DNA from: Bispira polyomma
Lineage: Eukaryota
Reading direction: 5' to 3'
NCBI GenBank assembly: GCA_965649765.1
Contig: OZ287754.1
Span: 27,466,001-27,530,000 of the forward strand
DNA: 64,000 nt
Shown: piece by piece, positions 11,859-64,000 of the stretch
How positions within the stretch are numbered: the stretch's first letter is position 1
Layout: the number at the start of each line of letters is the position of its first letter
The notes under the pieces: model-generated
Database searches by the model: none
What the model was told of the DNA's origin: nothing
The model's input: only the letters and a program-made list of their open reading frames with translations
Position numbers and translations under genes: made by a program

Positions 11859-11870
11859 CTGAAAGTACAG

Positions 11871-40227: not shown

Positions 40228-43200
40228 TTGCATCCCGGAGTAGCTCACATATCTGCTACCTCATTGGCTAAAGTTGCAAAAAAAAATTCATACTCTTGTT
40301 CATGTCGTAAATTTCCAACCACTGTTAATGGTAGAGGTCTTGTGTTGTTGCTCTTACTCGGCAGTGATGTGTCCCTTAACCATGGTCCTGTCATGCTCGG
40401 GGTGCTAAATGCTAGATCTGTGAGAAACAAAGGTCCATTTCTTGCTCATATTGTGACATTGCATGACCTCGACCTCCTCTGTGTTACTGAGACCCATGTC
40501 CGTCTATATGATACAGATAGCTTTCTACGGTCTGTTACTCCTCCTGATTTTGTGTTTTCTCAAATGCTTTATCCCTCAAGTATTGGTGACGGTGTTGGAT
40601 TCTTCGTCAGATCCTCCTTCAAACCACATCAAATAGAATCTCCTGTCTATCAGTCCTTTGAAAACATGATGGTGTCAATTGGCCTTCATAGCCGCTCGCT
40701 GTTGCTTGCCTGCGTCTATCGCCCCTCCCCAAGATCAAGTACTTGTAATTTATTAGAAGAATTCATGTGTTTTGTTTCCTGTCATACATTAACAGTTTGT
40801 ATCATATATGTGGTGACTTTAACATCCATGTTGATGCACCATTTGGTGACAGCCATAAATTTATGATCTTCCTTGATTTGTGTGAACTAAAACAGTCAGT
40901 TAGACAACCTATCCATCTGCATGGTCACATTCTGGACCTCATTTTATCTCCTTGTCATCAGGATACTATTGTAGATGTCAAAGTCTGCAATTTTATATCG
41001 GATCATGCATTAGTCAAATGCTCAATTGCTTCTCCCTGACAGGTGGCTCATATTCCTAATACAGTGCATTATAGGAGGTACCACCGTATAAACATGTCTC
41101 ACCTCCACACTGATCTCAAGAATACTTCCTTCGTTAAGTCACCAGCCAATTCTGTAGCCAAACTTTATCAACAATACATACATGACCTGGGCGATGTACT
41201 AGATAAGCATGCACCACTTGTATCTAGAATGTCAAAGAAAGATTCTGTGCATTGGCTTTCTGATTCATACCAACGGGATAAGTCTCTCAGGTGCCAATAT
41301 GAAAGAACTTGGCGAAGGGCCAAGAATCCATTGAATAGAGGTAGACTTCATTGCAAGATTGCCTGGTGCAATGTATTTGTTAACGAGGATAAGTCAGAGT
41401 ATTATAGCAAATCTATCTCCGACAACAGTCACAACTCCAGCTATGGCACGAACTGCACAAGACCCTTAATATGGTTACCAATGTGGCACTCCTGTCCAAT
41501 GAATCTAATAAGTCACTAGCTGACAAGTTTGCTTGCTTTTTTTCAGACAAAATTAAGAGAATTAGAGATACTTTTGTTGTTTCTGGAACTAAAATTGATG
41601 TTTATCCTCTTTCTGATCCTCCTGAAATTACTGCCATTACCAGAGTCTCTGTAGATGATGTTTATAAAATAATTAGTAGCTCGTCTACAAAATCCTGCAT
41701 GTTGGATCCATGGCCAACATCTCTCATCAAAGAATGTTGTGATATATTACTCCCATCCATTACAAAGCTTGTAAACTGCTCACTTACTGAGGGAGAGGGC
41801 CACGGTGGCCTAGTGGTTAGCAAGCATTGCACTTCACAATCACTGGTCTCTCACCTCTGGGCGGCGTGAGTTCGAATCCCGTCGGTGCCTATGTGGGAAA
41901 GGTGGTAGTTCTTTACTGTGGGCCGCTGGTTTCAGTGCAGAACCTTGACCGGCTGTATGCAGTGTTTCCTCCAGCGTTTCCAACTACCCGTCCCAATATA
42001 ACCTACTAAAAGGTACTAGAGTGGACGTTAAATATCCCAATTCAAAATTCAAAATACTGAGGGACATGTACCTGATGGTTTTAAAACAGCTGTGGTTACT
42101 CCTCTTATTAAGAAGGCTTCTCTTCCAGTTGACGACCTTAAGAACTATTGTCCTGTATCTGGTCTTGGTTTCATATCAAAACTGGTTGAACGTGTGGTTG
42201 CTAAGCAACTGTTAGATCATATCCTGGTCCACGACTTAGACAACCCATACCAGTCTGCCTATAAAACAGATCATTCAACTGAGACAGCTCTTCTGTCCAT
42301 AAAAAATGAAGTTCACCTATCTTTGTCAAGAGGCGAACTTACTGCGCTGGTATTGCTTGACCTCTCTGCTGCCTCTTACACCATTGATCATTCCACTCTT
42401 CTCAGTTGTCTTCAGACTTGGTTTTGGCTCTGTTCTTAAATGGTTCACTTCCTACTTAACTGATCGTTATCAGTCGATAAAAGTTGGCTCTACTTTGTCC
42501 GATCTTTGTAAACTCTTGTTTGGTGTTCCTCAAGGTTCAGTTTTGGGCCCTCTGTTGTTTTCATTGTACAATGCCCCTCTCAGATTGGTGATTGGCAAAT
42601 ACAAAGGTATTTAGTTCCATTTTTATGCAGATGATACCCAAAGTTATGTGCACCTATCCCATAAGAACACATCTACTGCCTTTGAACAGTTGAACAGGTG
42701 CCTTGACGATGTGAAAGAGTGGATGTCAACTGGTAAACTCAAACTTGATCCTGACAAGGCTGAGTTCATAATCTTTGGCTCAAAATGACAGAGGGAGAAG
42801 TTGAAAGCATGGTTTCCGGTTGACATCCTGCCCAGCTGATTCTGTAAAGAACCTGGGTGTATGGTTTGACTCTGACTTTTCCTTCTCTAAACACATCCAG
42901 AGTGTCTGCAAAAGTTGTTTTGTGCAACTCCATGATTTTGGACGTGTCCGGCGGTTTCTCACTTATGATGCTTCTATACTTGTGACCAATGCTTTTGTCA
43001 TTAGTAGACTGGATTACTGCAATTCACTTATCAGGAGTCTCTCAAAGTTTAATTTACGTAAATTACAATGCATTCAAAATAGTGCAGCTAGAATTGTGTC
43101 AAATACCAGTCGATACACCAGTATAACTCCTGTTCTTAGGAAATTGCATTGGCTCCCTGTTGAACAGCGTCCAGTGCTTAAAACAGCTACACTTGTATAT

Positions 43201-43613
43201 AAGTCTCTTCACACTGGGTTTCCAACTTATTTTGCCCCATATCTTTCCTGTTACAGTAGTTCCTATAATACCAGACGTAGTCAGAGTGCTAGTAATTTCC
43301 TTGTAGTTCCAAAGTACCACCCATCTACTCAAAAGTCAGTTAAATAGTTTGGTCACAGCTTTGCTTTTGATGCTCCCATTGTTTGGAATGCTCTTCCTGA
43401 GGTGATTCGTTCTTCCCCTTCACTAGCCTCTTTTAGAAAGCAGCTTAAAACCCACTTGTACACCAAAGCATACCCACCTTAGTCTCAATCATCCATATGG
43501 TGCTCGATTCTTTTCTGTCCTTGATATTGGAAATTGGATTATTGTCTTTGTGCTGTTGCGCCTTAGGGGAGATTAAAGGGAGATTAAGCGCTATAAAATC
43601 TAATTACAATTAC
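40228..43613 (+). mobile_element. L2-clade LINE ORF2 (APE + RT), frameshifted, with 3' UTR and (attaca)n tail
   Basis: LNARS, VTETH, CGDFNIH, GHILDLI, SDH, QSAYK..HSTETAL, LDLSAA, GVPQGSVLGPLLF, YADDTQ, SRLDYCNSL, LHWLPV. Confidence 0.93.
41795..42054 (+). mobile_element. Full-length tRNA-derived SINE with 10-bp TSD, inserted in L2 ORF2
   Basis: A box tggcctagtgg, B box gttcgaatcc, (aattca)n tail, TSD tactgaggga at 41785-41794 and 42055-42064. Removing it restores NCSLTEG|HVPDGFKTAVVTPLIKK. Confidence 0.95.
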
Positions 43614-45715
43614 CCGGTTAGGTTTTCTCACAACACCCCGTGGACATATTATGGTGCTTACCCTGCCCCGCACCACCTAGTACCCGCAGGAGTTCGACCC
43701 TGCCGTGGAAACTTACTGGTGGCCGGTTGGTACTCTACAACCCGATAGCCCCCTTGTCAGGGTCTTGCCATGGCCTATTTACTTAGGCCAAACAATCAAG
43801 TGTAGAACTTTATAGTCAAGTAAACTGCCACCAGTTTAAATTTGGGCTCAACCAACAATTATAAATATATGCCCTCATCACCTGATTTCCGTAGTAGTAA
43901 TACTAGTTTAGATGTTCAAGTAAATGTGGTAGTTTGATAACTGAACATCGCCTGTTCTTTACACCTGCCGAGATAAACTGTAGAGTAGGAAAACATGGGA
44001 AAGATGAGACTTTTACAGCTTGTAATACAGAGCATAATAAAATACGATAATTTAGGATAAAAACCTATATTATTGCTTTTAATAATGTGGAGAGAAAGCC
44101 AAGCCTGTGCTTGGTCTGCCCTGATACCACATACCTAGTCTTGAAGTGTGGTCTGAACCATATCCTAGAACTCTAAGGTTAGAATGTTATGGGGGCATAT
44201 TTACATATAGGTTACCAATCAATCTAATGATCTAGTGATTAAAATAATTGTCGTAAAATTATCATACAGACCAATATAAATAAACATTACATGTATGTAT
44301 AGATTAAAATATTACAATATACGTGTCTACAATATGTACAATAATGTCACAAAATATAGCCCTGTGGTACCCAGCCCTACTGTTACCATACACCTTACCT
44401 AACCCATCATAATCGCTAATGATACTAGCGGTAATAATTCCACCAGGAGTGGTGACATTGAGGACATTACAGGAAGCTGAATCATGGCTGAAGCTGAGAT
44501 GCAGTTTGCCAAAATTTACCTGACTGTCCCAACTCAGGAGTACCCACCGCTAACGCTGTATCCCACCCGTGGATTTTAGAAAGGGAGAGAAAAAGGAATA
44601 ACTCAATGAAATGAATGTTTAATTAATGAATGATGTATAACTTTTCAATGGGTGCAGTGTTCCCTCCTGGCTACCTTCCTCAGAACCCTCACAGAAACTG
44701 CTTGTGAACAGGGGCTACCCTGGGTGAACTACCCCAGCCCAAGGACCCCTATCCCCAGTAAACATGGTAACAAATCACATATTAAAACTGATCAAAATCC
44801 AATAACTAACTTTATTTATTGCTGAATGGCAGATAATGCATTGGCTGCAGCACATTGCCCCTTGGCATCAAACCATTTATCAATCCATTTAAAAGGGCTT
44901 TTAATTAAATTCTTTGACAAAAGGAGTAGTGTAGAATGAACAGATGCCCCAAACCCCTTTTGGTATTTGTCTGTTAAATGTTCCATCAAACAATGAAAAA
45001 TGGCACTAAAGGGTATCATTATACCAATTCACCTTTATTTGAAAAAAGTTATATAATTGGGTCATCATCATAGGTTTGAATTCCATAAAGCAGACCATTT
45101 GCCCAAAGTCCCATGCCATTTGTCCAGAGCAGTTAGTGGCTATTGGATTCTAATACTTTCTCAGTGCGAACCGTTTGACAACGTACTCGAATGACACAAA
45201 AAATTCTGAAAAAAATTTTCTGACAATATTATTTCCCTCTGAAAGTTTGAAGAAATGAAGACTTACGAAATAGATGCTACAGATGAGAAGAAGGTGGAAG
45301 TGCATTCTGTCGGTCCTTTAGGAAATGGCAAACAGTTTGTATTTCCGATCAAGAGAATCTGTCCGGAGTTACACAGTAACCAAGATGACAACATGACTTG
45401 TCCTAACTGCTGTCGGCCTAAGAGGAACAAGGGAGAAGAAAAGTACAAACCGTTGAAGAAGAGGCTGTTTGACTCGGAGAAAGATTAATTTCCTTTTGAC
45501 TGACAATAATTTTTTTAATTTTTTGTTGTTGTTTTTGTAAAACGGTCATATGTTTTTTATTTGTAAAGAGACTCTTGGTATATAAAATATAAGTATTAAT
45601 TCTTGCAATATCTATTAAAAAAAAGCTCTCGAGCTTTGTTCGTTTAAACCCTGTACTTAAAAGCGAATAAAATTGGTGTGAATAATCATTTTTTGTTTTG
45701 ACTTGAAAGCGTTCA

Positions 45716-46322
45716 CTTGGCTTTAGTAAAGTTTGAATCACCCTCTACTTGGATTATCTTAGGTATTACCGGTTGTATAAGTTGTTGCAGTGCAAGGACG
45801 AGATGTTTGACGAACCTCCTTATAAAATCATTTATTGCTTTTCCGTGGGGACAAAACAAAATGTAAAAAAATTTAAACATAGATTTTTTGCAAGGGATGC
45901 CAACACCCAAAAAGGTCAAGGAAATATTTGACGGTCGTCACCACTTGATCTGTCTAGATGATTTGCAACAGGAAGTAGCCAATAGTAAAGAGGCTGAGAA
46001 ATTATATACCCAACTCATTCACCACAATAACCTCAGTGCAATTTATCTAAATCAGAATTTATACTATCAAGGCAAATTTGCCCGTACACTCAACCTAAAC
46101 ACAGCTTACAGCATTCTATTAAAAAATCCTAGAAATACCAAACATATAGCTCTGTTGGGACGTCAGTTGGGAATGGGAAAAGTCTTAAAAGAGGCTTATC
46201 GGGATGCCACGAGTAAACCGTACGGCTACCTGATTGTTGACATATCGCCCAAAAGCGATAAAAGCTAAAAGTTAAGAACTAATATTTTTCCCCATGAAGA
46301 CCCGTCGCTAGTATATCAATAA
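45716..46322 (+). pseudogene. Polinton packaging ATPase (A32-like)
   Basis: Walker B LICLDDL, HHNNLSAIYLNQNLY, TLNLN, KNPRN, LGRQ, AY.DATSKPYGYL. The Walker A GKT is missing after PSTWIILGIT, apparently through a small deletion. Confidence 0.88.
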
Positions 46323-46992: not shown

Positions 46993-49900
46993 ATGTTAAC
47001 TCCTGACAAAGAAAGTTATTTGAAAGAAATATATTTCAATCCCAAGCAACCCACTTTGTTTGCCGGGGCAGATAAGCTGTATAACTTTGTAAAATCCCAA
47101 GGACAAGATTTTTCTAAAGGAGATATATTAAAATGGCCGAGCAAGCAAAGCGTATACACTATTCGGAAATTATTCGGAAAGAGCTATTTGAACCTTGAAA
47201 GGAAAAATTGGGAGATATATGGTCTATAACAAGTCGAGATCGACGCTCTCCAGGATATTACGGACAGTTACAATAACACACACCATAGAACAATTAAGAT
47301 GTCTCCAAAAGAAGCCCTCTTAACTGAAGACCCGATTCTCTGGGAAGCTCAGTATGAGAAACAAGAGGAAGTGACCTTGCGGTCACAAATCTCGGAGACA
47401 TGAATCTATTTTTTAAGCTGTCTGCCTAAGAATTGAATATATTATACACTGTATTATTATGCCATGTTGGTTCAATGGCCGCGTACCAGACGTTTGCTGT
47501 GGATTCCGAAAATAGTGACCCAGACACTAATTGGCGGTCAAAATGGATTCCGAAAACGATCTATACTGCTTGTGGTCATAATTCGGCCGCCTGTCATAAA
47601 TCGGCCATCATACAAAAAATGTCATAAATTAATTAATTTTTTTTGCCTAACAATATTGTAATTTCTTCAATATTAGTATTGTAATGGTTTTACTTGAATC
47701 TTATAGTCCATTTTGTACTAAGATTGTCAATAATTACCACTTAAAATGTGACGGCCAATTTAAAACTGGCAGCCGAATTATAACCAGAGGCAGTATGTAT
47801 AGTTGCTAGGAACTTCCGTTATCGCCCATTACATTGTATTATTATGCCATGTTGGTTTAATGGCGGCGTACTAGACGTTTGCTGTTGATTCCGAAAATAG
47901 TGACCCAGTCACTAATTGGCGGTCAAAATGGATTCCGAAAAATTCCGTTATCGCCCATTACTCAAATCTGTGGTAGCAATATATAAATAGAAACGAAACT
48001 TTGCGAAGCTCATTTTACATAAACCATTGAAAAGTGTGACTTCAAAATTCGATGCATTTCAATATGATTCATATTTTATTTCTAATTTTATTTGATGTTT
48101 TCGCCACCATAAAGTTGTGGTTATATATTGCTGGGAAATCCCGACCTACTGCGCACACACTTATGCATTTACTCATGCGTATTGAAGACGTCCCCAAATT
48201 TCAGCCAATCCCAACTCGCCTAAGATTAAATTAAGTCGGACACCATATTGGAGTATTCTTTACTACTATTTACAAACAGAGATCGACCAATAGAAATCGT
48301 TGTTACAGAATAAAGTTTCAGATGGGGCGAGTTCCTGATTGACGGATTAAAAAATCAATTAATATCATGTGAGAATCTGTTATTTACCACAAATATGGCG
48401 GTTTCGGAAGCAACTGAAATCTCGCAAACTAAAGAAATTTTGATGGAATAAAGCCACTATATGAGCAGGTAAGGTGAGATTCTGTCAAACTTTCAAATAA
48501 TAATAATGTTTTTATTAAATTAAGACAAGTTCTTGGCTTTTTGCTACTTCTCGCCCATCGTTTTAAAATATAGAATTTATCTTCTGTTTAAGGTTTTCCT
48601 TGTACACAAATAAAAGACTGTAGGGATGGCGTCGTCTAGCGGTCGAGACCAAAGTTAGAAAGTGTGCGTTCTCGTAAGCTAGAAGCAAAATTAAAAGAAA
48701 TAACTTTTCCCGTCAGTATGGGTGTATATATATCGTATATATCTATCCCAAACCCTAGTCTTTGTCACATATATATACCTATTGAAACCTACGAATCTGA
48801 CTGGCCCCATGGAAAATGGACATAACAAAATATGCGGTAATTGGGAGGTCAAAAGTTAAATCTTATTTTACAAATAAAATGAAAAATAGATATATTAATG
48901 CTTCTGACTCGTCCTTAGTACCAACCACATGTAACTGCAGAAAACTGAATTAAAATAATGGACAAAACTGGTAGAAAGTGCTGTCTACAGACGAAAAAAC
49001 TTCCATCTCCTACATGATCTTGGCGGGCTCCGCCCTCCGACATAACAACCGAAACAAATTAAAGAAAAAAACAAGAGGAGAATGGCCTGGCGGCCATATC
49101 ATGATAATGCCACCACATGACTACAAAGCAAGTTACTGACGAGTCTGGAAATAGTGAACCAGTCACTAGTGAGCGATCGAAATGGATTTCGAGAACCATC
49201 TACTGTGGGTACCCAGTTAGGTAAACCAAAGGCAAAATTCAAAGTAAAATCTGAAACATATGTATAAACAACCGAATTGCCTTAAAAAATGTTTTTATAA
49301 TTTATTTTTCACATAAGTTTGGTTTAAAACCTGATAAAAACAATTTTTTATATATTTTGGAAGCTTACAAAAGTTGGTTTGTTTACCAACCAAATTATCG
49401 GGTTTTTGACAGCTCTAGAAATGACCAAACCATAATTTATTTTCCAATTTTAACATTTTCATTTTTAGCTGTTATAGCTTGCAAAACATCCGAAATTAGT
49501 CCGAAGTTAGTGTACCACTAGTTACTATCCCTATAGACAAAAGAAAGTACTAGTCATCAGTACAGAAGCCACTATAGCACCCAAGTTTAATCCAATTACA
49601 GATTTTTTTTACTAAACTGTCACTGTTCTATGCACAAACATTTTACAGGTATTCATAGATTAACTATTTTAGTCACACTTTTAGTCATTTTATAGTCTTT
49701 ACAGCCACAACTACCCATTAACCAAAGTATGTATATATATGTTATATATCTTCCCAAACCTAATGTTTGTCATGTATATATATTTTCCTTTTGAAACCAT
49801 TTGAAATGGGTTGTGATGGAACCTTCAATCAAATCTGAGGACCCCAACATTTAAAACTTGAATAACTTCATCTATACTGCATATAATCACACCAAATTAA

Positions 49901-50290
49901 TTTTGGACAAACTAGAGACCAAAAAGTGTATATGTACGAAATTTAAGAGCACAATTCTTTACAGATTCAGAGATTACCCTGTGGACACGTTGTAACCATG
50001 CGTAACCAAGGTTCTTTCACTATTCCCTTTCTCCAGGAAAGCATGATTATGCCAATAAGCATTGGCATAATCATGCAACAAACCAAAATCGTCTAAACAT
50101 GAAAAATAAAAAAAAACCCTTTTGTTTGAAAGTAGGCGACGTAGTGAGGCTATCGAAATTACCAGGCAGTAACCATAAAAAACAGATAAAAAGTGGACAA
50201 ATGAATTGTTTACAATGGCATCGAGAAGTATCAATCAGGGTTTTCCTAAATACGAAGTCAAACACTTTAGCAACGAGCCTAAAAGAGATA
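46993..50290 (+). pseudogene. Polinton retroviral-like integrase: core deleted, split by ~2.7 kb of inserted repeats
   Basis: N-terminal LKEIYFNPKQP..FAGADKLY, then LQDITDSYNNTHHRTIKMSP (~47270), then C-terminal KVGDVVRLSK (~50130). Confidence 0.8.
47566..47793. mobile_element. Tc1/mariner-type MITE with TA target duplication
   Basis: TIR ctgcttgtggtcataattcggc / gccgaattataaccagaggcag with ta on both sides. It lies between 107-bp direct repeats at 47450-47556 and 47835-47941. Confidence 0.7.
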
Positions 50291-50309
50291 AATTTTCGGA
50301 CGTTCTGAT

Positions 50310-50960
50310 TTTTTGAACGTTCAGAATGCTTGGATCTATCAAGAAGCAGATTAAAAGTCAAATTGAGAATTCTTGAGAATGACAATACCCCCATCACCAA
50401 AGACAACAGTGTAGGACTGGTGAACCTAAGTCTAGCTTCAATATTTCAACAGGTAGACGTACAGTTGCAGGAAAAGCTAGTTAGTTCCGACATAGGCATA
50501 TGCTATCCATACAAGGCGATATTAGATGTTCTGCTCAAATACTGCTTTGATGTGAAAGAAGGACTACTACAAAGCGAACTGTATTACAAAGATATTGGTG
50601 ACATGGAAGCAACCCGTCCAGGTAACAATGATGGTTTACTAAATCAGACAGCATTCAGATCTATTCCAACAAGAGAGGCTTATCCTGAATGGGGTAAAAG
50701 TAGCCCTGAAATGTCATTCCTCTGCACTGATGACTCGTGACTCCGAGGATTATAAAATTTCAAAATGTTTTTAAAGCCTGTCACGTGAATGTCAGTGATG
50801 CGGTAATACTTGCTCAGAATGAACTTGTGAAGATATCTCCAGCACTCTATCCTTACTGGATCTTATCCTCTCTCAAAACAATATCGTTTCCTAGCAGTGT
50901 TTCTTCTGTGAACAGTGACATCTTTAATAGTCAAGTTCCTAGCAGAATATGCAGCAGGAT
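50310..50960 (+). pseudogene. Polinton major capsid protein (double jelly-roll) fragment
   Basis: LDLSRSRLKVKLRI..VGLVNLSLASIFQQVDVQL..YPYKAILDVLLKY..LQSELYYKD; later ALYPY and DIFNSQVPSRI. Confidence 0.82.
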
Positions 50961-51009
50961 ATTCTCTGTTTTGCTTTGTTGTTCAAGGCGAGGCAACGGT
51001 TTTTTTAAC

Positions 51010-51480
51010 TTAATGTCTGACTTTCAAAGCACTCACCCTTTCTCCCAATATATTTTGTCCAGGATAATTTTTACTTTTTAATAAAACAACCACGTCGTAA
51101 TCTTCTCCCCAACCTAAGTACCAGTCTTTAGAGGCATACGCAATTTCTTCAAACAGGAAACTGTCTAACAGTTCGTTAAATTCATTACATTTGACGTATT
51201 TATCTTCCAGCGCCTGTTGTAATAGTTCTGACAATTCTACGTACCACGACACTTTAATTTAAATGTTCTTTTGAAATTTGCGAATGTTAGCCACAGAAGT
51301 CTCTCTATGAATTAGTAAAGCATCGGCTTCGCCCTGGTGATATTTCACTTAGTTGTAAGCTAAAAAATGTTCTACAGATCCAAACTGTAACTTGTCGTAA
51401 AATAATGGATACAAATACGAATTGCAAATGGGATTCACGCTCTCATCTTTGAATATGTAACGGTTAAAGTCGGGCTGAAG
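51010..51480 (-). pseudogene. NADAR (YbiA-like) domain, in frame with the C-terminus of the Polinton pPolB
   Basis: F..NPICNSY..F.SVEHF..W....L..AL.DKY..F.ELL..IAYASKDWYLGWG..YPGQNILG, with two TAA stops. Confidence 0.78.
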
Positions 51481-54400
51481 ACACAGAACCAAATCTAAAG
51501 GCGAGGTATGGATACCGTTATTTGCTACTTTTTTCTTGCAATAAAAACAATTGAAGCCAACTTTTTATTGACTGTAAGTATACATGGTATTGTCTTTGGC
51601 TCTAAAACCTTGATTGATACCAGCCTGCTGCATTTGGGTTTCTAGTACCTTATTCAATATATTCATAGGCTGAATCTCTTGTTGATACCCTTGCATGACA
51701 GCTTAACTTGACCTTGTCTTTCAATCACGTACGGTTTGGAGCACAGGGCGACCATATTACTTCCCGTCATTTCTTTCTTAAAAAGCCTTACCGTACGGCC
51801 GTCAAAGAGGGCGTCTGCATGACAACACTGGCGCGGGAAATATGTTTCTCAGTCCGCTAAATGCTTTTGTCCGCATTTAAGTAAAATTTTATTTTCAAAT
51901 TCTTCTCTTAAATGGGATAAACCGCTTCTGCAAGAGTTTTGTGAGAAAGAGCAAAATACAAACTGTTGGTGTCCATTTGTACGCATTCAAATTTGTTTCT
52001 GGGTATGTACTTGCACAAATTGTCGTAGTAGAATGGAGCATTCTCAACTTAGCTCAGCTCAAAATGAAGAACCCGATTTGTATAGGGACATTCAGGTTTT
52101 TCTACCTTTTTGCACATTCAAACTCGTACATATCATCTCCTAACCAAGTAGCTTTGCGAAACTCAGGCTTGTTAATGGCTATTTTTGCTGAGGTATGACC
52201 GTTGAGCTAAGATATTTGTGAAAACTTTTCTTTGTTCATAATAGTACTACCATATCCGCTATTTGCAACATTCTTAAAAGTATCCCGCACAGTTTCAGAT
52301 CCGAAGATTAATCCGCCTTTCTTCTGGCGTTAGAACACTTCTCCACAAAGTCTGAAAAACAAGCCACCGGGGTAAATTCGATGATCTCATACAAGTTACT
52401 TACGACTAAACCGAGATTCAGATACCACTACAACAGAGGCGTAGTTAACATAATTTTATGGGCTTTCCTGCCTCCTACTAATAAATGTCTATCTTTGATA
52501 GACAAATCATGAAAGATAGTGTGTTGCAGCATATGTCTGCCAATGATGCCCATTGGTACGCCAGTTGTACAAAACAAAAGGGAACATTCTTTGAAATAAA
52601 TGAATGGTGGCAAATCACTGTCAAAGTCTCCACTCCACTCATTTCCAACAGCTCAATCTACTTCAGCGATTCCAAAAACTTCGCCCGAGCGAATAGCTTT
52701 TAACAAGGTATCTGTACGCAGTCCGCTTTTATGCTTTGAGTATAAGTTGGGTAGATAGCGATCGCTTATATTTTCAGTAGTACTTTTAAAGATACTTTTG
52801 AACTGACATTCCCAAATTTCATGCATGGTGTAACCCAAACTTTCTAAATGTTCTTTTCGTAAAATAGTTCTCCTGCATCTACCTTCTTGCTGTTTGCACC
52901 ATTAGGGAAACTTTTTTGCTTTTAACGGTGACCGTACAGGAAATACATGCGTGAACCGACAACCTTAACTATAAAGGTCCATGCCGCAAATCCCGTTGAC
53001 GTAAAAGCCCATAACGTAATGCTCTTTGCCCAAATTTAACTATTTTTTTTGAGTTTGATATTTTATTCATCCAGATATACATGTCCAAATATTTGGTTTG
53101 GATTTTAGGTTTGAAATTATAACGGGCTTTTCAGCAAACAACGGCTCTGCACGGTTGATCGGACGCGAGACAGAAACTATAAAGACTATTCGCATCAAAG
53201 CCAAAAATTCTCTGACAAAATTCTTCGCCATTTTTTAAAGTTCGTCCAACTGACATCTTTCTTGTTAAAACTATGGAAGACCCCCCTGTGATATTTTGTT
53301 TTATTTTTCTGTACAAATCTTCATTTCCTTATTGAATAAAGCAAATTTTGCCTCTTCGGAATGGGAAAGCATTTCCCTTGCAACGCCTGGAACAGATATT
53401 GTGTCCTTAAACAAATCAACGTTATTGTCTATATAGAATTGTTGAAGGTTAGTAACTGCTTCCGTAAAAGGGTCGATATCTTTGAGGTTGTAGTAAATGA
53501 GAAAATCTTTTATTGTCTGCATGCGCTGATCCTTCCATACTTTTAGTAAGTCTACATAGTTTTCAAGTCCGCTGAGGGGTTTGCCACTACAAACGCATGA
53601 TATCTTTCCACAATAGTTACATATTTCACTTTCAGATACGGATAAATCTAAATAAACCAAATGACAATATTTCTCAACTTTTTCTTCTTTACATTATATA
53701 TATGATTTTCCTAATCTTGAGTTTTCAGTTTAATATTATGATTTTCATGCCACAAATGGAGTTCCTGCTCTCAAACATTACATTTTTTTAAACTACTGTA
53801 AAAAGTTTCATAAGGCAGCAATTAAGTTTCTTCGAGGACGGAGGGCTCTCAAAAATATTCATAACAGAAGAAGCTTTTTGAGTCTTTTGCCTTGTAGCTT
53901 TTTAAAAATTGGACGTAAGAATACCCGGGAGCGATGTACTGACTAATGTCTTAAAAGTTGAGAGTTGATGTACTTATAGTCAAATAGCTATTGTTCTTTT
54001 TCACTGTAAATGACTTTGTTTCAGGGTCGGATAAACCTAAATGTTTACAAAGTTTAGATTTGATCAGATTTAAAATGTACTTGGAAGAATTAAAGCCCAG
54101 AACGGGTACATTGCTGCAGTAGAATTCCAAACGAGCTTTTAGGGTCTCAATTGTTTTCAATATAGTTTTTCTAAACCTTTCTCTGGGCATTAATAGGACT
54201 TTGCTATCTAAGTTTTCATTGTCCTCAGTCTCGTCAATTTCACTATCCGATTCACCTGAGTCCTTATCCAAACTAGAATTAAAGTCATGGTATTCCAGTC
54301 GCAATTCATTGCAGTTCTTTAAGTGCGTCATCATTTTGACAAAGCTATTGCCCATGTTAACCCTGTTTTTAAATTTTTTCAAAGGCGGTTCATAATCTAC

Positions 54401-54810
54401 GACTTCTAAAGGTCCAATTTGCAATACACTGTCGAAATCAGTCCTTTTATTACAAGATTTGGAAGATATAAAAGGGTTGTCAGACTTTTCCAATGGTATG
54501 ACATCTTTAAATTTTTGACTTACTTGGTCCAGCCTTTCGAATGCCCATGCAAATTTGTGTTTTTCAATTTTAGTAACTTTTTTTGAGATCTTATTCATGT
54601 AAGCAACCATTTAAGTAATGTGTCTAAATTGAAATCGACCAGGCAGACACCTTTTTCGAATTCGAGAACGATTGACCCTATTCCTATTGAAACTGGTAGA
54701 TGTTTGGTCTTCCAGACTAATTTTTGGGTATTTACAGGTTCCTTTCTTTCAAACATTGCCTCAAAATCGAATGTTATAAAGTAAGAAAAAACCTGATGAA
54801 ATATTAATGG
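51481..54810 (-). pseudogene. Polinton protein-primed DNA polymerase B (pPolB), fragmented
   Basis: ExoI FDFE, ExoII GFNSSKY, ExoIII YYNLKD, motif A FDANSLY, VSR-like insert (FYVNG..IWECQF), motif B KNVANSGYG, motif C QMDTNS, C-terminal GINQGFR..KKKVANNGIHTSPLDL. Confidence 0.9.
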
Positions 54811-55073
54811 ATTTTGAATTTGAATTTGGATATTTAACATCCACTCTAGTACCTTTTAGTAGGTTATATTGAGACGGGTAGTTTGAAACGCTGTAAGAAA
54901 CACTGCATACAGTCGGTCAAGGTTCTGCACTGAAACCAGCAGCCCACAGTAAGGAACTACCATTATTCCCACATAGGCATCGACGGGATTCGAACTCACG
55001 CTGCCCAAAGGTGAGAGATCAGTGATTGTGAAGCACAATGCTTGCTAACCATTAGGCCACCGCAGCCCCCCTC
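54811..55073 (-). mobile_element. Full-length tRNA-derived SINE (same family as 41795-42054), no TSD
   Basis: The reverse complement aligns end-to-end with the 41795 SINE. Confidence 0.92.
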
Positions 55074-55074
55074 T

Positions 55075-57271
55075 ATAAAGTACTCAATTATTTTGGTTTC
55101 TGTGAAAATTTCATTACCTGGATAAAACATTTAAACAGAGATATAAATGCATATGTAATACAATGGGGAGTTTTATCTAATCCAATACCGGTAGAAAGGG
55201 GCTGAAGACAAGAGACCCAATTGCTCCGTATCTTTTTTTGTTGGTAGCCGAAATATTAAGCTTTCTCATTCAGAAATCTTCAAACATTAAGGGCCTCCAA
55301 ATTGGAAAAGAGATTTATAGGCTCACACAATTTGCAGACGACACAACAATGATTTTAGATGGCAATGTAGATTCTTTGCAGGCAACTTTGAATGTTTTAG
55401 AAATTTTTGATAATCTGTTGGGCCTAAAAATAAATACTAAAAAAACTCAACTTGTCTGGATTGGTAGTAAAATTGGTTCAAAAGAAAAATTGAAAGTTAC
55501 ATCAAAATTACACTAGGGGAGTCCAAGTTTAATCTTTTAGTAGTAACATTTTCATGTGATTTGTCTGAAATACCATGTTTGAACTATAAAAAAGCATTGA
55601 CAAGAGCAAACACACACTCCAATCATGGAGATTCGGATACTTGACACCGACTGGAAAAATCACAATTATTAAGACACTAATATTATCAAAATTTATCCAC
55701 TTGTTCTCATCAATCCCAACACCAGTTGAGATTCTAAATGACATCAACAATCTTTTATTTAAATATATATGGGATGGGAAACCAGACAAGATAAACAGAA
55801 AACAACTGTGTAAAAACAATCTACAGGGGGGCTAAGCATGGTTAATATATATAATTTTGAAAAATCTTTGAAAGTAAGTTGGATAAAGCGTATGATTTCA
55901 GTAAGAAAAAAAAAACTGGTTCATCCTCCTTAAACATGTAGCTGGAGATCTAACAAAATTATTTACTCTAGGGGTGAGTGGTGTACTACTATAATATCAA
56001 GATTAAACCCATTTTGGAAAATAGTTCTTACTTATTTTAAAGAACTTTGCAAAATTTCAAAAGTTCACACTACTCAAGACATATATTGCAGCAGTATTTT
56101 GTTCAATAGCCATATTGGTACGGATAAACTTTTCTTTCCAGATTGGTTTAAGCATGGTATTTATGTTATTGGAGATATTGTAAACTTAAAGGGCTGTATC
56201 TTAACCTTAGAAGAGATCAAGTTTCGGTATAACTTCCCAATGAATATTGTTAACTACATTACGGTAAAACATTTTGTTTAGCCAGTTTTACTGCAAAGTG
56301 CGAAAAATATCGCCTGTCTTTTTCTAAGACCATATATTCCATTTGATATAAGAATTTGAGTAAACTCCCACACCGGAACTAAAAATATTTTTTTAAAGAT
56401 GCAAGAATTATGTAACAATTTACCAAACAATGAAACAAAATGGCATTTTAAATACTGAAAAAAATTCAAACATATTGAGAATAATATATAAAGTTTTTTA
56501 TATTATAAATGATAAAGGATTTATATGGTTCCAATACCGAATTTTACATAGAATTTTAGGGACAAAAGAATTGTTATTTAAAATAAAACTGTCTGATAGT
56601 GATCAATGTAGGCTGTGTAATCCGAATACTGAATTGATGGTACACTTATTTTTGAAGTGCATCAAATCAAACATGTTATGGAATAATGTAACATCCTGGA
56701 TTGAATCAAAACTCGGAATTCAAGTCAATTTGAAAACATCTCTCAAAATATTAGGTACTTTAGAACAAGATTAAAACTTTTGGCCACTAAATTTTATCTT
56801 AACAATTTCGAGGCATTATATTTTTACAAATGCCAAAAAAAAAAAAAACAACAGAGATCTTAACATATATCATTTACAAAAAATTGCTGAAACAAAATAT
56901 TTTGAACAGGAGATGTTGTCAAAAGTTAATAATACATATAAGGGATTTAAAAGAAAATGGTTGACATGGCATGCTATCTTTTCAGAATTATTATTGTAAA
57001 ACTTTTACAGAAATAAAATTAGAAGAATTGTTATACTTGTGTAAGAGTATTGCTTTTTGCCTATATATATAAATATATGTATGTGTGTTTGTAGATGTAC
57101 TTAGGCAATTTGATGTTTTGCTCTTTTCAAATGTAATAAAATGACTATAGAAAATTAGTAATTGGCAATTAATAACGTGATTCTGTTTTCTCACTACGGT
57201 TGAATTTGTGTCATATTTTTGACTTGTATATATGTAAACCAAAAAAGAACAATAAAAAAAGTAAGAAAAAA
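55075..57271 (+). mobile_element. L1/Tx1-like LINE, 3' half of ORF2 with A-rich tail
   Basis: DPIAPYLF, QFADDTT, GLKIN..KT, LT..GKITIIKTL, C-terminal CRLC...E...HLF..C knuckle, aataaaaaaa tail. Confidence 0.88.
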
Positions 57272-59479
57272 CCTTTCCTTTACAGGCACTCGAATGCCGT
57301 ATTTTTCAAGTTTTTTAAAGGTGTTTTAGTTGGCTTGATAAAACCCCCCAGGAAATCTTAACTTGGTCACTTTGGAACTATGCAAATAATGTGCAGATAG
57401 TTGGTAATGTTTCCTAAATAATCTGTTACATTTGCTGCACTGAAACCTCTTTGCGTGAAGATCTATATCCTTAATTTAGGACAGGTGGTTTTCTTGTAAA
57501 TCTAAATACAAACTGTCTTTAAATTTACTGACTGGTTTATAAATACTGGACACACATCGGTTTTCAAGCAACTTGAAAACTGAAATATTAACCTGAAAGC
57601 AGTTTAACCAGATCTGGTAAATCGTCCATACTGTTAACATCAATACGAAGGTCAGATTCTTTTATGAAGGCGTTAAATAATATTTTATAATTTTTTTTTA
57701 TATTTCTTCAAGGCGGTATAAAAATATTAAATATATACAATTTTAAAAAGCTGTTAAAGTAAGTTGGATTAAAACAAATTACTCCATCAAGCTCTTAGTG
57801 GTGAAAATTATTTAATTATTTATTTACAAACATTGACTAAATTATAACCTTTGCTAAAAGGTGGTGTGATACAATTTTTAAAAAAAAATCACAACCAGTT
57901 TTGACACAATGTTCTAGAATATTGTGTTTTTACTTGCATTTGTTATAACTCGCATATTTTTGATAGCCCTACATTTTTTTGGTACAAAAGTAGAATATAT
58001 ATAAAAGGGAATATCACTGATTTAAATAGAGAAATTTTCACTCTTGAATGGATCAATCGTAAATTAACAAAAAAGAAAGCAAAACGAAAATTTGGGGAAC
58101 CAAAAAAACCACTCTATTCAATTAAATTTCAAACCGATAGATTTAATAAAATGTGGGTACTGTGTGAAAACATGTTTACTGGCATAGACATTTAAAAAAA
58201 ATATTAGAAAAAATTTGAGGTTTGAACCAAGGCTTCGTTGTTTTTTTTTAAATAATAATTTCTGCATTTCTTTTGTTATTTGAAAAATTTCAATAAACCT
58301 GTATCTTTTATGAATGAGAATTTTGTATAAATCAATATACAGTGTATTGGAATGTAACTGGGTTAACCTATGCATGACACCAAAATGTAACTGAGATTGA
58401 TTCAGTGACAATTCAAATGTGTACAGATTGAAACTTTTTATATGCTTAGTTAAGTGGAAACGGTCTTTTTATGTATGAGTGCATGGTAAAAATAGACTTA
58501 TCAAGCTTAAAGTTTAAAAGATTAAACCATTCAAATGTTCTTGATCCTGGATATTGCTTAGGTTAACGTTGACATGAAGCAGACACTACAGAAGACACAT
58601 AATAATACTAACAATACATATGTACAAAAATAGGTCAGCATATGTATACATGCCAGCTTCTAACATAGCATGTGAATTATGTTAGTAACATAAATATAGG
58701 CTTAATATATAACATAAAAGTAACTTTAAAAAGTACAATATTTATTTACCTACGTTATTTGGTAACTATGGGTATAAAACATAATATTTCGTGTGTATTG
58801 CATAATTCAAAAGCTAGAATGTATATATTTCAAATATGCAAGCTTCAAGAGAACATTAGATACGAAACTAACAAAAGACTAAAATATAATGCACATACAT
58901 ATAGTAGAACCCCCAAGGGACCACACAAAAGCAATCGACCAACACGGTACATTTGGTCTAGTTGGGACCACAAATTCACTTCCAGTTAATGGGACACTTG
59001 CCTTAACAGTGTTTCATTTAAAGTGGTTCAACTGCAGACAACTTAAAGTGAAGGAACCTTAACAGGTAGGTACTTAAATCTAAACCTGTATAGCCTGAAA
59101 AAGAGTACTCATAAATATTCATTTACCAAGGTAATTCAATAACTATTGGCAACTATAAAGCTATAGATGTGAAGGGTTAAGGAATTGTACTATGTTGTAA
59201 GTATGTATTTGTAGACAACTTTAACTTGAAGGTTAACACATAAAAGCTGTATTTACTATACATTTCAAGGAACAAGGAACTGACATGTGTTTGCAAAATA
59301 TGGTTTTAAAGACACTGTTTTACTTAAAGGGCTATACTGGGTATATTGAAACAAATATGATTATACATAGAATTAAACAAAATTTAAGAACATACATAGG
59401 ATTAAATAGACTGATATAAAACATCAGCGAGAGCTATATTAATAGTCACCATCAAACAGTTTTAATGTTTTCGCCATTT

Positions 59480-61814
59480 CTTCCCTTTTATCATAGCCTG
59501 TATTGCTTTCTGTAAGTTCCGGTGCCATGTGCAATGACATTCCACGCATGGTTTGAAGAATGTCCTCTTCCTCCTTTGTCAACCTAAAGTCAAAGATTTT
59601 CAGCACATACTGGGTGGTCTGGTCATTATCTTTCTTCGTCTCGACCTACAGAAAATAGCAGAGACTGCTCTGTCACTCTGGCCTTGTGAGTAACTAACTC
59701 ACCTAGGAATGCAAATGACCTTAGTTTAATTAAACCCTAGATCCACTGTGTTCCCAAGTTGTTTAACCACTAAGTAATTGTGACAATGGGAAGTGATAAG
59801 TTACCAAGGGAAAAATGTCAAACTGAGGTCAGACCATATGTAGATAAAAACAATATCACTATTTACCTTGTATACATATAGGGCTCATACATATACTGGA
59901 ATCTAATAATTTTTAAGAGGAACATTCAATGCAAAATTTAAATATATAGTCTAATATAAATATAGTAAATAAAGCTTGCTGTTAGTGAAGGTTATTAATT
60001 CCAACAATTTGCCTGATCAATTAATTTGCCAAACAGTTTAAAAACTGAGCCCCAACACCCGTTTTAATTCCAGAAAACCCTTTATATGTTTAGTCCTACC
60101 TCCTAAACACAAGATCACATGTGAACTTAACAATGTGATCTACCTGATTAACTGCAGTCAATGTGGTCTCCAATATATTGGAGAAAGAAAAAGACCCATT
60201 TGACAAAGAATGTATGAACACCAACAAAGTGTCATCATTCAAGATACCTTATTTAGTGTCACCTTATTTCGATTTTTAATATAAATACAGGTTTCTGTCT
60301 GACTAAAAGTTCTTCTTAAGGGGTTAAACTGTATGTTTTGCTGTGAACAGAGAAACACACTCCTCTTCTCATAACTCAACATAATTTTTTTGGCTATGTT
60401 TTGTTTATGATGGTCCACGTCTGTGGAATGATTTACTTCATGATATCTGTTTTGCTCTCAGGCAAAGGCTCAAGTTTTATTTGTTTGACTTGGCCTATTC
60501 GCTGTAATCATGATAAATTTGTACCTTTTTCACACAATGACAGCATTACTTACCTCAGATTGAAATGCTCCCGTCTTATTACCATAGCGCTTTAATGTGT
60601 TAACGACATTTTCATAATCTTGGCCGTCACTTTGGTGGTCTCACCATAGTTGGTTTTCATTGTCTATTTGAACACCGTCCCAAAGACGCCCTCTCCTATC
60701 AGGTCTCCCTGCTTCAAGTTCTCTGGCGGAATGTCATTTTCCTGTATAAAGAAAAATATATTGTTGTATATAGTTTTCTAAATTTAGGTATCCAATCGCT
60801 CCTGCTTCTGCAACTGCTACCTCAATCCTAGTTTCTCGAATTTGAACTTAAATTTATTGGGGTTTTAAAGCAGACGCTCATAACCACTATGCCACCAGAT
60901 TACCAGATTAATACCTTTAATTTTCGTCCACTCAATTGGTGCTTAATTCACACTTTTGTATTTTCCCTCAAATATCATAGGTAAACGCCTATTTTCATGC
61001 TAAACCACTGCATACATATGTAGTATTATGTAGAAGGTAGAACTGTTATTAGAAACTGTCCAACTGTATTTTTGCATTAAAGTTTTTCGGTGACATATTT
61101 GCCCACATAAAAGTTGTATGCTAAATTAGTTAGCTATACAGCAAAGGTATTTAGAATCATATTATCATTAGGGAAATCACAATTAATCAGCTTAATTTAA
61201 ATGAATAATCGCCCAAAATATCAAAGTAGCAAACTATATCAAATAAGCACATTATTTCTTTAGAGGACAAGTAATCATTTATCGGTAAATTGTATGATAA
61301 ACAGCAAATTCAGCTTTTTGTGGCTTGGTTCACATTTTAACGTAAAATCTGAACTAAAAATAAAAACCGATTACTTGCTGTATTGTCACATATATATCAG
61401 AAATGACTTTTTAAATGAAAATTGAAAACTAATAAATGACACAAAGCATATATTTGGCGTTATCAAAACATATTTTTTGTCATCTAGCCTTATAGTCACT
61501 AACTTGTTAGTAATACTGCATTTTGAATATTTAAGGAATATTCAGACCAGATACAAAGAAATATTCTGCCATAGTTTTAGAAAATGTAGAGAATGTATTT
61601 ACATGTATATCGTGCAACAGAAAGTAGTCCAATGTGTTCTGTAGCCTGGAGACTTTTGTTAACAGAGAATTACACTTGTCTTTTGTCTTGCTGTTGATCT
61701 CCTCTTCGTATTCCAGACTCATGTCAGAAAGTAGTTCCTGATCGGCTCTCACAAACTCGGGGATTTTGTTGATCAGCGACATCATTCTCTTCACTAGTTC
61801 ATCCATCCGTTCCT
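59480..61814 (-). pseudogene. Multi-exon protein kinase pseudogene (TK/TKL-like) with an upstream helical region
   Basis: Exons 61603-61814 (helical, ag/gt), 60554-60741 (IGEGVFGTVF*, VTAK, RRE; two stops; ag/gtaagt) and from 59645 (LKIFDFRL, HMAPE). Exons 1 and 2 join in phase 0. Confidence 0.75.
60101..60230 (+). mobile_element. Penelope-like GIY-YIG endonuclease fragment
   Basis: ITCELNNVIYLINCSQCGLQYIGERKRPI*QRMYEH. Confidence 0.8.
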
Positions 61815-62010
61815 CTGGAATTATAACAAACAAAAATGTGTACTTAGATACAAAGCTCTTAAATAAAAACAACATAAACTGAAAACAGAAAGGAATAATC
61901 AGAAAAAATATCAAGATATTTATAATAATAGGATTTGGTGTATTGTATATGTCAGTGAATGTGTGAGTTCAAAACATAACATCTGCAATGAATACAAGAT
62001 CGCAAAATAG

Positions 62011-62472
62011 TCTGGAGTCCATGCTTTTTTCACCAAACACCCACCTCTGAGCAATCACCACCACGCAGTTTTCACAGTGGAGGGCAAGGAATTCACAAGC
62101 TCAGAGCAGTATATCATGTATAAAATGGCTTTACACTTTACAAAGACCAGGAGACGACTGAAAAAGTATGCTCCATCAGATCTAAGAAGGATTAAACAAC
62201 TGTCCAAAGCTGTACAGGTTTTCAGGTAGCCTGCATGGATTCAAGTAGCCTCGGACTACATGTTCGACGCAATGTATGCAAAGTTCAACCAGAATGAGCA
62301 TCTGAAAAAACTCCTTTTATCTACTGCAAGAAATACCTAGGTTGAAACAAATCCTTTCAATACGACATGGCCAGTTGGCTTATCGTTAAGCAACAGGGAT
62401 ATTTTTGATTCAACAAAATGGACAGGCAAAAACTTGGCTGGGAAGACACTTGAATGTATAAGACAGAAATAA
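62011..62472 (+). pseudogene. NADAR (YbiA-like) domain in the ORF1 C-terminal position of an L1/Tx1-like LINE
   Basis: AFFTKHPPLSNHH..FTVEGKEFTSSEQYIMYKMALHF..IKQLSK.V..W..MFDAMYAKFNQNEHLKKLLLST..VETNPFNTTWPVGL..WTGKNLAGKTLECIR, with two TAG stops. Confidence 0.88.
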
Positions 62473-62844: not shown

Positions 62845-64000
62845 AAGTAGTAAAAATTGTTGTTAAAATGGCTTAAACAATAAAGAAAAAACATGCAATG
62901 TACTGAATTATTTAAAAGATAAGCATGCAGATATTGTCTGTCTCCATGATACACAACTTACTGATTTAAACAAAAGTGATGTTAAACAAATTTGGAAAGG
63001 CAATTGTTTTTAAATGGTTTAAGATGAAATGCTAGAGGAGTAGCTATATTGTTAAATAAAACATTTGAATACAAAGTTATCTATTCAAACAAAGATACAG
63101 GTGATAACCTACTAATTTTGGATCCAGAAATTACAGAAATAAAGCTAAGATTGGTAAATATTTATGGCCCAAAAACAGACAATGTAGAATTCTATTTGTA
63201 TATTTCATCATTAAATCATGAAAATGAACAAGATTATAGTCTGATATGTGGTGACTTTAACATGACATTAGATCCTGATATTGATTGTAATAATTATGTA
63301 AATGTGAATAACCCAAGGGCAAGACCACAGTCTTAGAATGTATGGAACAAAATCATTTAAGTGACGTCTATGGGTATTTTAATCCAAAAAAGAAGATATA
63401 CCAGCGAAGACAACATCCCCTGAAACAGGCAAGATTGGATTACTTCATTGCTTTCTCTAGCACTACTGATATAATTAATAGTGTCAATATAAATCCTGAA
63501 TATCAGACCATTCTATCTTGGAACTGAATTTCTTAATAAATAATTTTAGAAGGGGCAAGCGGACATGGAAATTAAACACTAGCTTGTTGAAAAATGAAAA
63601 CTATTTAAATTTTATCAGGAAATGTATTAGAGAAGAACATATTAGATATACAATCCCACTATATCTTAGATTTTCAGTTAACTATAGATTATGATATTTT
63701 TCTGGAAGTACTCCTACTTAGAATAAAGAGGAAACTAATAAATTTGCAAGTAAAAAGAAACATCGCAATAAAGATGTAGAAAAGTGGATCATATCTGGAA
63801 TACAGTTGCTCGAGGAAAGTAATTCACTGGAAGATTTTGACAAACTACAAGCAAAAAATATTAAACTTCAGAACTTCAGACAACTTAACATGCAAGGTCA
63901 CCAGGTAAGTTCAAGACTAGAATGGCTTTCTGATGGAGAAAAACCGACAAAATATTTCTGTGCATTAGAACACAATAATTATGTTACAAGTCAAAAGGAA
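62845..64000 (+). mobile_element. L1/Tx1-like LINE ORF2 N-terminus (APE endonuclease and linker), running off the window
   Basis: NGL, IVCLHDT, ARGVAILL, VNIYGP, ICGDFNMTLDP, ARLDYF, WKLNTSLL, SRLEWLSDGEKPTKYFCALE. Confidence 0.88.

Follow-up and report, generated by a model that had tools for sequence, protein, structure and literature searches.

In a stretch of 64,000 nucleotides from Bispira polyomma (assembly GCA_965649765.1, contig OZ287754.1, positions 27,466,001 to 27,530,000 of the forward strand; hereafter the window), two domains of the NADAR/YbiA family are found, each of which is the C-terminal part of a protein encoded by a mobile element: NADAR-1 ends the protein-primed family B DNA polymerase (pPolB) of a Polinton, and NADAR-2 ends the ORF1 protein (ORF1p; ORF, open reading frame) of a long interspersed nuclear element (LINE). 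Judged from the aligned catalytic positions, the LINE domains have the residue set of an active YbiA-family NADAR and the Polinton domain does not. The reading that we favour, with a modest degree of confidence, is that the LINE domain would act in cis as an eraser of base-linked ADP-ribose on element RNA, and that the Polinton domain would be a non-catalytic extension of its polymerase. The two domains are located as follows:

51010 to 51474, minus strand: NADAR-1, the degenerate domain of NADAR fold with which the Polinton pPolB ends (Pfam and tblastn).
62011 to 62472, plus strand: NADAR-2, the domain with which the ORF1p of a LINE ends, the 5' part of ORF1 being missing (Pfam).

Both window copies are dead (i.e. 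pseudogenes), since each domain contains two in-frame stops (TAA in NADAR-1, TAG in NADAR-2). With the stops read as X, the Pfam NADAR match is under the cut-off for NADAR-1 (51013-51447, minus strand, E 3.5e-6) and above it for NADAR-2 (62011-62469, plus strand, E 4.9e-29).

A stop-free segment (51352-51564, minus strand) spans the C-terminal motif of pPolB and continues into NADAR-1, amino acids 1592-1809 of an open pPolB align across 51669-51016 in a single tblastn high-scoring segment pair, and the open polymerase as a whole maps piecewise from 57604 to 51016, broken by a Tx1 fragment. The possibility that NADAR-1 is a stand-alone cargo gene was rejected, as the domain is in frame with pPolB in the window as well as in open loci. 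The genome searched, here and below, is the 1.035 Gb assembly containing the window, in which the Polinton domain gave 497 candidates (150 scored). Five loci have single open frames of 1799-1823 aa with the NADAR at the end, and Pfam recognises the domain in 4/4 of the frames scanned, with E-values of 6e-6 to 3e-20 for the open-frame relatives of NADAR-1; an rve integrase and an ATPase lie downstream in all three loci at which that flank was examined. A NADAR-like tail is likewise present on 20/20 further pPolB loci (profile E ≤8e-7; six confirmed with Pfam), which were hand-picked from 150 listed polymerase-segment matches at 39-81% identity with long frames favoured, and no NADAR-less pPolB occurs among these 20. 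The N-terminal helices are missing from some tails that are otherwise retained, roughly one quarter of the domain having later disappeared in some Polinton families. The polymerase itself is a VSR-bearing, DNA_pol_B_2-like pPolB2: for the VSR insert, profile A5 matches E. coli Vsr (E 5e-4), and there is a PHROG endonuclease match (E 3e-8), and its nearest Atlas clusters are DNA_pol_B_2, without NADAR.

The same fusion is found in five pPolB-NADAR clusters from other assemblies. In their tails, identity to the loci described here does not exceed 54%, and the one cluster that was searched genome-wide reaches only 53%, which means that at least one other genome carries the fusion. A search with one Polinton tail among proteins of 989-3149 aa gave none of 179 candidates, and the profile search gave 6 of 7827. 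In IMG/VR the Polinton domain returned three weak loci among 26 stretches (the two inspected are stand-alone NADARs), the pPolB segment none and the LINE NADAR profile none of 149; the JGI metagenomes yielded one of 123 (a NADAR without polymerase) and GTDB one partial match of 73.

For the LINE domain, the genome search with Pfam NADAR gave 2147 first-look candidates, of which 150 were scored, all above the cut-off. The 30 loci examined have ORF1-type frames of up to ~450 aa with the NADAR at the end, followed, where the flank shows, by an APE endonuclease, which is Tx1/L1-like in the L004 family, while L016 and L018 have one of another, dissimilar kind that has a 2A-like start (taken here to be CR1/L2). 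Relatives of NADAR-2 are 79-90% identical, with homology that starts at ~62009 in the window and in the relatives extends upstream into ORF1, from which it follows that the window copy has lost the 5' part of ORF1; NADAR-2 groups with the L001 and L025 ORF1s (support 100/96). Of 60 ORF1 relatives in other assemblies, 58 have a precomputed NADAR match. The layout is that of a Tx1/L1-type LINE, i.e. ORF1 followed by an ORF2 with APE, reverse transcriptase (RT) and zf-RVT, the clade label resting on zf-RVT and on our assumption. The earlier reading of this DNA from its letters (the sequence-only reading) had placed NADAR-2 beside a LINE ORF2 and NADAR-1 in a Polinton. Both placements were confirmed, the first by the APE endonuclease downstream (NADAR-2 being, moreover, part of ORF1p) and the second by the ATPase, integrase, capsid-like gene and pPolB alongside.

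The residues that separate the two families were numbered after the Phytophthora nicotianae NADAR 8BAU and transferred via a LINE copy; E125 and E43 are positioned at the ribose and K50 at the phosphates (PMC11543638). After P0036 and P0058 were dropped, the comparison comprised 29 own and 5 other Polinton rows, and 30 own and 58 other LINE rows. At E125, Glu is found in 0/34 Polinton rows (0/29 own, 0/5 other), nor is there any row with Asp or His, Phe or Tyr being present in 30/34; Lys remains at K50 in 2/34, Gly at G78 in none of 34, and W133 is replaced by Leu in 20/34. The LINE rows retain Glu at E43 (30/30 own, 57/58 other) and at E125 (29/30 own; 50/58 other, with 7 gaps), Lys at K50 (30/30 and 56/58) and D130 (30/30 and 46/58), and the outgroup rows have Glu at E125 in 19/21. 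The window copy of NADAR-2 is itself decayed, with K50 and D130 changed in addition to its two stops. Phage AdfN requires the equivalents of E43 and K50 (bioRxiv 2024.07.11.602962). With E125 and K50 missing, the Polinton domain is likely to be non-catalytic, and the earlier proposal that it is an ADP-ribose eraser was not borne out (E125 absent in 34/34, K50 in 32/34). Separately, a stand-alone NADAR in an IMG/VR giant-virus bin (L092, 7824-8453) has Tyr and Leu at E125 and W133, i.e. a Polinton-like pattern, and is grouped apart.

Despite these substitutions, the predicted structure of the Polinton domain has the NADAR/YbiA fold. The model of a Polinton copy (predicted local distance difference test, pLDDT, 80.5) has Foldseek template modelling (TM) scores of 0.70 to E. 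coli YbiA (2B3W) and 0.69 to 8BAU, with VIA Z-scores of 13.0 (root-mean-square deviation 3.4 over 142) and 12.8 (3.1 over 145), respectively, and an Atlas NADAR score of 0.96; when just one Polinton domain served as query, a PDB sequence search did not pick up the NADARs. The ratio of nonsynonymous to synonymous substitution rates (dN/dS) of the Polinton NADAR is 0.13-0.23 in 8/14 pairs (12 of the 13 pairs first chosen plus two added), while four further pairs are saturated; the values for two closely related pairs are 0.43 and 0.88, of which 0.88 is what drift after insertion would be expected to give. The adjoining part of the polymerase has a dN/dS of 0.10-0.14 in 5/5 pairs. For the LINE domains, the proportion of nonsynonymous differences (pN) is 0.21-0.31 and that of synonymous differences (pS) saturated in 7/7 pairs. 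Both domains are thus under purifying selection between families, and neutral evolution, which the sequence-only reading had named as an outcome that would speak against it, was not what was found there.

A conserved fold without the catalytic Glu could also be that of a remodelled enzyme, with another chemistry or another substrate. The conserved Ser, Trp, Lys and G-x-N-x-x-G columns of the Polinton domain would suit such an enzyme, but the E125 column varies (Phe, Tyr and others) and contains no invariant polar replacement, which makes this explanation very improbable.

NADARs are not restricted to these two families, since at least four types of carrier are present among the mobile elements of this genome, the further ones having been found by a query with a divergent NADAR. 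The first are Tx1 LINEs with a CCHC-knuckle ORF1 that ends in a NADAR, in which E43, K50 and E125 are kept in 4/4 aligned copies; L159-L163 are such LINEs with an intact NADAR of the second sequence group, L160 having an open ORF1 of 413 aa and an ORF2 of 1284 aa. The second are Penelope-like RT-GIY-YIG elements with the NADAR ORF upstream, which have His and Gln at E125 and K50 in 2/2 copies, and of which six copies occur at ~9-kb spacing and two more on C19. At L156 (2609-7671; C11, ~57.20-57.25 Mb), L158 and L164, this upstream ORF is 936 aa long, with an end that is presumably esterase-like. In addition, L155 (3024-7169, plus strand) and L157 (3131-5062, minus strand) each contain a single ORF, 1382 aa long in the former and 644 aa in the latter, that encodes two NADARs, the second of which keeps the catalytic set. 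Macro domains, with 41 exon-sized matches among 76 candidates, are not a multi-copy element domain here. That unrelated mobile elements repeatedly carry a NADAR, as claimed earlier, is therefore upheld, the retroelement domains being under purifying selection as well.

In a tree of 71 rows (11 rows, including three partly deleted Polinton tails, were dropped beforehand), NADAR-2 is placed with the coiled-coil ORF1 NADARs and ten bacterial and phage NADARs (97/95). All Polinton domains of the tree fall into a single group (support 96/80), which lies with the Penelope, CCHC-Tx1 and double-NADAR rows across a 96/92 branch from NADAR-2, and a mixture-model tree of 40 rows (31 more dropped) has the same split, with values of 96 and 90 in the Shimodaira-Hasegawa approximate likelihood ratio test (SH-aLRT). 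Given this split, the two domains of the window have separate histories, and the earlier statement that they are highly divergent and not recent copies of each other agrees with their placement in different groups. The further step, that independent capture implies a host enzyme, was not supported: as the Polinton domain groups with other animal element NADARs, transfer from element to element explains it equally well. The tree, which is unrooted and has long branches, points to another mobile element as the most likely source of the Polinton NADAR, but not to a particular donor or to a direction of transfer.

These placements also bear on the explanation that was originally proposed, namely that both domains are active erasers, captured independently against a host enzyme that ADP-ribosylates element DNA or RNA. 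It would account for the four or more NADAR-bearing element types next to a Macro family seen only as exon-sized matches, phage AdfN offers a precedent (bioRxiv 2024.07.11.602962), and CARP-1 homologues are mainly bivalve (PMC12945103), the pPolB2-VSR type being linked to molluscs (bioRxiv 2023.08.22.554363). However, all 34 Polinton rows lack E125 and 32 of them K50, His and Gln occupy these positions in two Penelope-like copies, the Polinton domain falls in one group with the NADARs of other elements, and the N1-guanine mark made by PARP15 was not removed by the NADAR tested (bioRxiv 2026.03.31.715305), so that this explanation must be regarded as quite unlikely.

Any eraser presupposes an enzyme that writes the mark. 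Most homologues of CARP-1 are from bivalves, and cytidine ADP-ribose, too, is reversed by NADARs (PMC12945103); N2-guanine activity has been found in six clams (PMC11209040). In the present genome, a search for the Scabin-like transferase family gave 0 candidates, with a control that was likewise silent, and no transferase family was recognised among the 23 window ORF pieces scanned or the sister-element ORFs scanned with Pfam, which misses divergent members. PARP gave 44 matches among 89 candidates. A region of C1 (70.79-70.86 Mb) contains three long frames without introns, of 1640, 1988 and 2326 aa, which have two PARP-family matches each and are candidates for unusual host transferases. A conflict between host and element is a possible model for the retroelements only.

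It could also be that the retroelement NADARs are active for reasons other than defence, e.g. on RNA intermediates or damaged nucleotides, as N-glycosidases of the YbiA type. To our knowledge, most LINEs retrotranspose without a NADAR domain, which is a point against this. A role in RNA processing has been suggested (PMC12477816), riboflavin intermediates are substrates of the YbiA family and the physiological targets of orphan NADARs are unsettled (PMC11543638); that no transferase was found in the Scabin-like search would be in line with this too, if it were not uninformative given the silent control. On the other hand, all NADAR subtypes tested cut G-ADP-ribose in vitro (PMC11125620, PMC12945103), and the fact that unrelated elements, as well as RNA viruses, have gained NADARs repeatedly (PMC9503650) fits conflict. 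A function outside defence is therefore considered doubtful.

The favoured scheme, in which we infer activities, substrates and a writer enzyme from the features above, has two branches. ORF1p coats its own transcript, as is established for L1. A NADAR fused to ORF1p would, because of this, act in cis on the transcript coated, and it may prevent the reverse transcriptase from being halted by ADP-ribose on N2-guanine or cytidine. In the other branch, one ancestral pPolB2 would have gained a NADAR, probably from the ORF1-type gene of another mobile element, after which the catalytic Glu would have been replaced by an aromatic residue early in the Polinton lineage, the domain persisting behind the thumb as an extension that is structural or contacts DNA.

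A number of points weigh against this scheme. Part of the Polinton pocket survives, as E43 is still Glu in 19/29 own rows (0/5 other rows, four of which have Asp) and W89 and D130 are mostly retained; the E125 site tolerates change, given that phage and DarT1-linked NADARs function with His or Asp there (PMC11125620); and the terms active and inactive are here read from alignments alone, in which the own LINE rows, as top Pfam scorers, are biased towards conservation. The pairs used for dN/dS have lineages in common and so are not independent of one another, and a model covering the C-terminal 853 aa of pPolB-NADAR, with a predicted TM score (pTM) of 0.32, is unusable in its polymerase part and thus shows neither docking nor DNA contact. 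The trees comprise ~170 columns, are unrooted and have long branches, and forcing the Polinton and coiled-coil LINE domains together gave an approximately unbiased test p-value (p-AU) of 0.20 without the second retroelement group, i.e. no rejection, and 0.034 (a marginal rejection) with it. Finally, no writer enzyme for the LINE substrate was found in the Scabin-like search, the only one made, with its control silent.

The surviving pocket residues, together with purifying selection on a domain tethered to a polymerase, would also be consistent with a Polinton domain that is a non-catalytic reader or decoy, binding ADP-ribosylated bases or a host transferase at the fork and thereby aiding bypass, all the more since a phage can escape DarT2 via polymerase mutations (bioRxiv 2024.07.11.602962). 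Yet K50 and G78, which contact the pyrophosphate and the adenine, have been lost, most rows have Leu at W133, an aromatic residue occupies the ribose-binding position, and several families delete the N-terminal helices but retain the tail; a reader or decoy is accordingly judged unlikely. A combined version, in which an endogenous CARP-1-like transferase marks element RNA and DNA, the retroelements erase the mark and the Polinton lineage turned its NADAR into a polymerase-tethered reader, is given a rather small chance. If true, it would be an animal counterpart of the DarT-NADAR conflict of phages, with marked DNA being copied via the Polinton reader.

The remaining features of the two elements in the window are:

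45711 to 46319, plus strand: packaging ATPase (A32-like) of the Polinton, 54% identical to a sister ORF that itself matches Pox_A32.
46993 to 50298, plus strand: rve integrase of the Polinton, in pieces (46993-47361 and 50078-50298) with ~2.7 kb between them.
50321 to 51009, plus strand: conserved Polinton gene, truncated (aa 57-304 of 429).
51475 to 57604, minus strand: remainder of the decayed Polinton pPolB2 gene, with frameshifts, stops and a LINE piece inside (tblastn).
54812 to 55068, strand unassigned: 257-nt interspersed repeat within pPolB, with an inverted twin at 41797-42053.
55070 to 57200, plus strand: 3' part of a Tx1/L1-type LINE ORF2 inserted into pPolB, ends approximate (Pfam).
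62849 to 64000, plus strand: decayed ORF2 (APE endonuclease) of the Tx1/L1-type LINE to which NADAR-2 belongs, continuing past the end of the window.

Of the hallmarks of a Polinton/Maverick, pPolB, the rve integrase (whose sister ORF matches Pfam rve and chromo) and the A32 packaging ATPase are present. By tblastn, the window polymerase is 42-78% identical, in pieces, to pPolB-NADAR proteins of 1812 and 1634 aa; the ORF2 piece inserted into it has Pfam matches to RVT_1 (55181-55513) and zf-RVT (56397-56771), and pPolB homology resumes at 57209. No terminal inverted repeats or target duplication were found in 40000-64000 of the decayed window copy, to which this search was confined among the copies. 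The conserved 429-aa ORF has no Pfam or PHROG match; it is a putative double-jelly-roll major capsid protein. The ORF2 downstream of NADAR-2 matches Pfam Exo_endo_phos (E 0.0024), aligns with sister ORF2s by tblastn and is 50% identical to the L004 endonuclease.

The closeness of the two domains, to which meaning had been attached earlier, proved uninformative. With random placement, 0.5-22 pairs within 11 kb are expected per genome (150-2147 retroelement and 150-497 Polinton loci, where 2147 and 497 are first-look candidates and not copy numbers), and the low figure of 0.5 is an underestimate because the window copy ranks below the 150 best scorers. Co-location was rejected as a signal, and it is likely that two dead element copies lie near each other by chance.

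Some further observations concern the surroundings. A 145-aa frame without Pfam match (61534-61968, minus strand) lies immediately upstream of NADAR-2, a short GIY-YIG-like fragment of a Penelope-like element is found at 60108-60231, and an exon-like piece at ~60600-60745 (minus strand) shows, by eye, the glycine-rich loop of a protein kinase together with an in-frame stop. GT8 glycosyltransferases are encoded by two intact frames of one exon each (388 and 384 aa; 5636-6802 and 34409-35563, both plus strand), which are separated by ~29 kb. The frames at 10876-15248 (minus strand) are RT and integrase-SAM-like by Pfam and presumably of the DIRS/Ngaro type, and 40228-43347 (plus strand) is a decayed APE-RT LINE, apparently CR1/L2-like by eye. 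At L064 (5339-7291, minus strand), a 651-aa polyubiquitin-like ORF with divergent repeats lies ~1.6 kb from a Polinton gene.

With respect to novelty, no report of a pPolB-NADAR fusion was found in the literature searched, which did not take in Repbase, papers behind a subscription, de Souza and Aravind 2012 or the supplements of bioRxiv papers (among them the full-length alignments of Jeong et al.). The term NADAR has 0 occurrences in PMC11161782 and PMC8502044, as has Polinton in PMC9503650; the supplements of PMC12477816 are without Polinton and its NADAR passages name none. Jeong et al. is not among the papers naming both terms, which concern fungal transposons and general transposable-element genomics, and neither YbiA nor DUF1768 occurs in the Polinton papers checked, a subset of those found. 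The fusion of a NADAR to a LINE ORF1 is already known, and the Polinton polymerase with a conserved, putatively disarmed C-terminal NADAR appears to be new, as does the occurrence of NADARs on several unrelated element types, in two sequence groups, within one genome.

The closest known system is that of the Tx1 LINEs of Crassostrea gigas, which carry a NADAR in ORF1, as does the Pol of an Ectocarpus Gypsy element (PMC12477816). NADAR-2 is of the same kind, a YbiA-family NADAR in a Tx1/L1 ORF1, although here two NADAR groups are found on two ORF1 architectures (coiled-coil and CCHC-knuckle), as well as ahead of an endonuclease of a second, dissimilar type and on Penelope-like elements. The Polinton polymerase is that of the pPolB2-VSR Polintons of molluscs and marine nematodes (Jeong et al., bioRxiv 2023.08.22.554363), sharing the protein-primed family B polymerase and the VSR insert, and can be compared to the TP-vOTU-EXO-PALM architecture (PMC11161782), here with an rve integrase and an A32 ATPase as neighbours; unlike in these descriptions, it has an extra C-terminal NADAR-fold domain of ~155 aa, by which the fusion adds a domain to the pPolB2 architecture. 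Phage AdfN/T4 gp30.3, an orphan NADAR, is likewise borne by a mobile element without a cognate toxin; its activity against a host transferase that is known has been demonstrated, whereas the Polinton domain is without a residue that AdfN needs (bioRxiv 2024.07.11.602962). In RNA viruses, a NADAR and a polymerase are combined in one polyprotein (PMC9503650). The fold of E. coli YbiA (2B3W) and 8BAU (PMC11543638) is common to both domains and the LINE copies have the full catalytic set, whereas the Polinton copies lack E125, K50 and G78 and both domains are fused rather than stand-alone. The intact LINE, His-type Penelope and aromatic-type Polinton domains form natural matched pairs, which bear on the question of whether base ADP-ribosylation serves animals as a weapon against the mobile elements in their genomes, and on the role of CARP-1.

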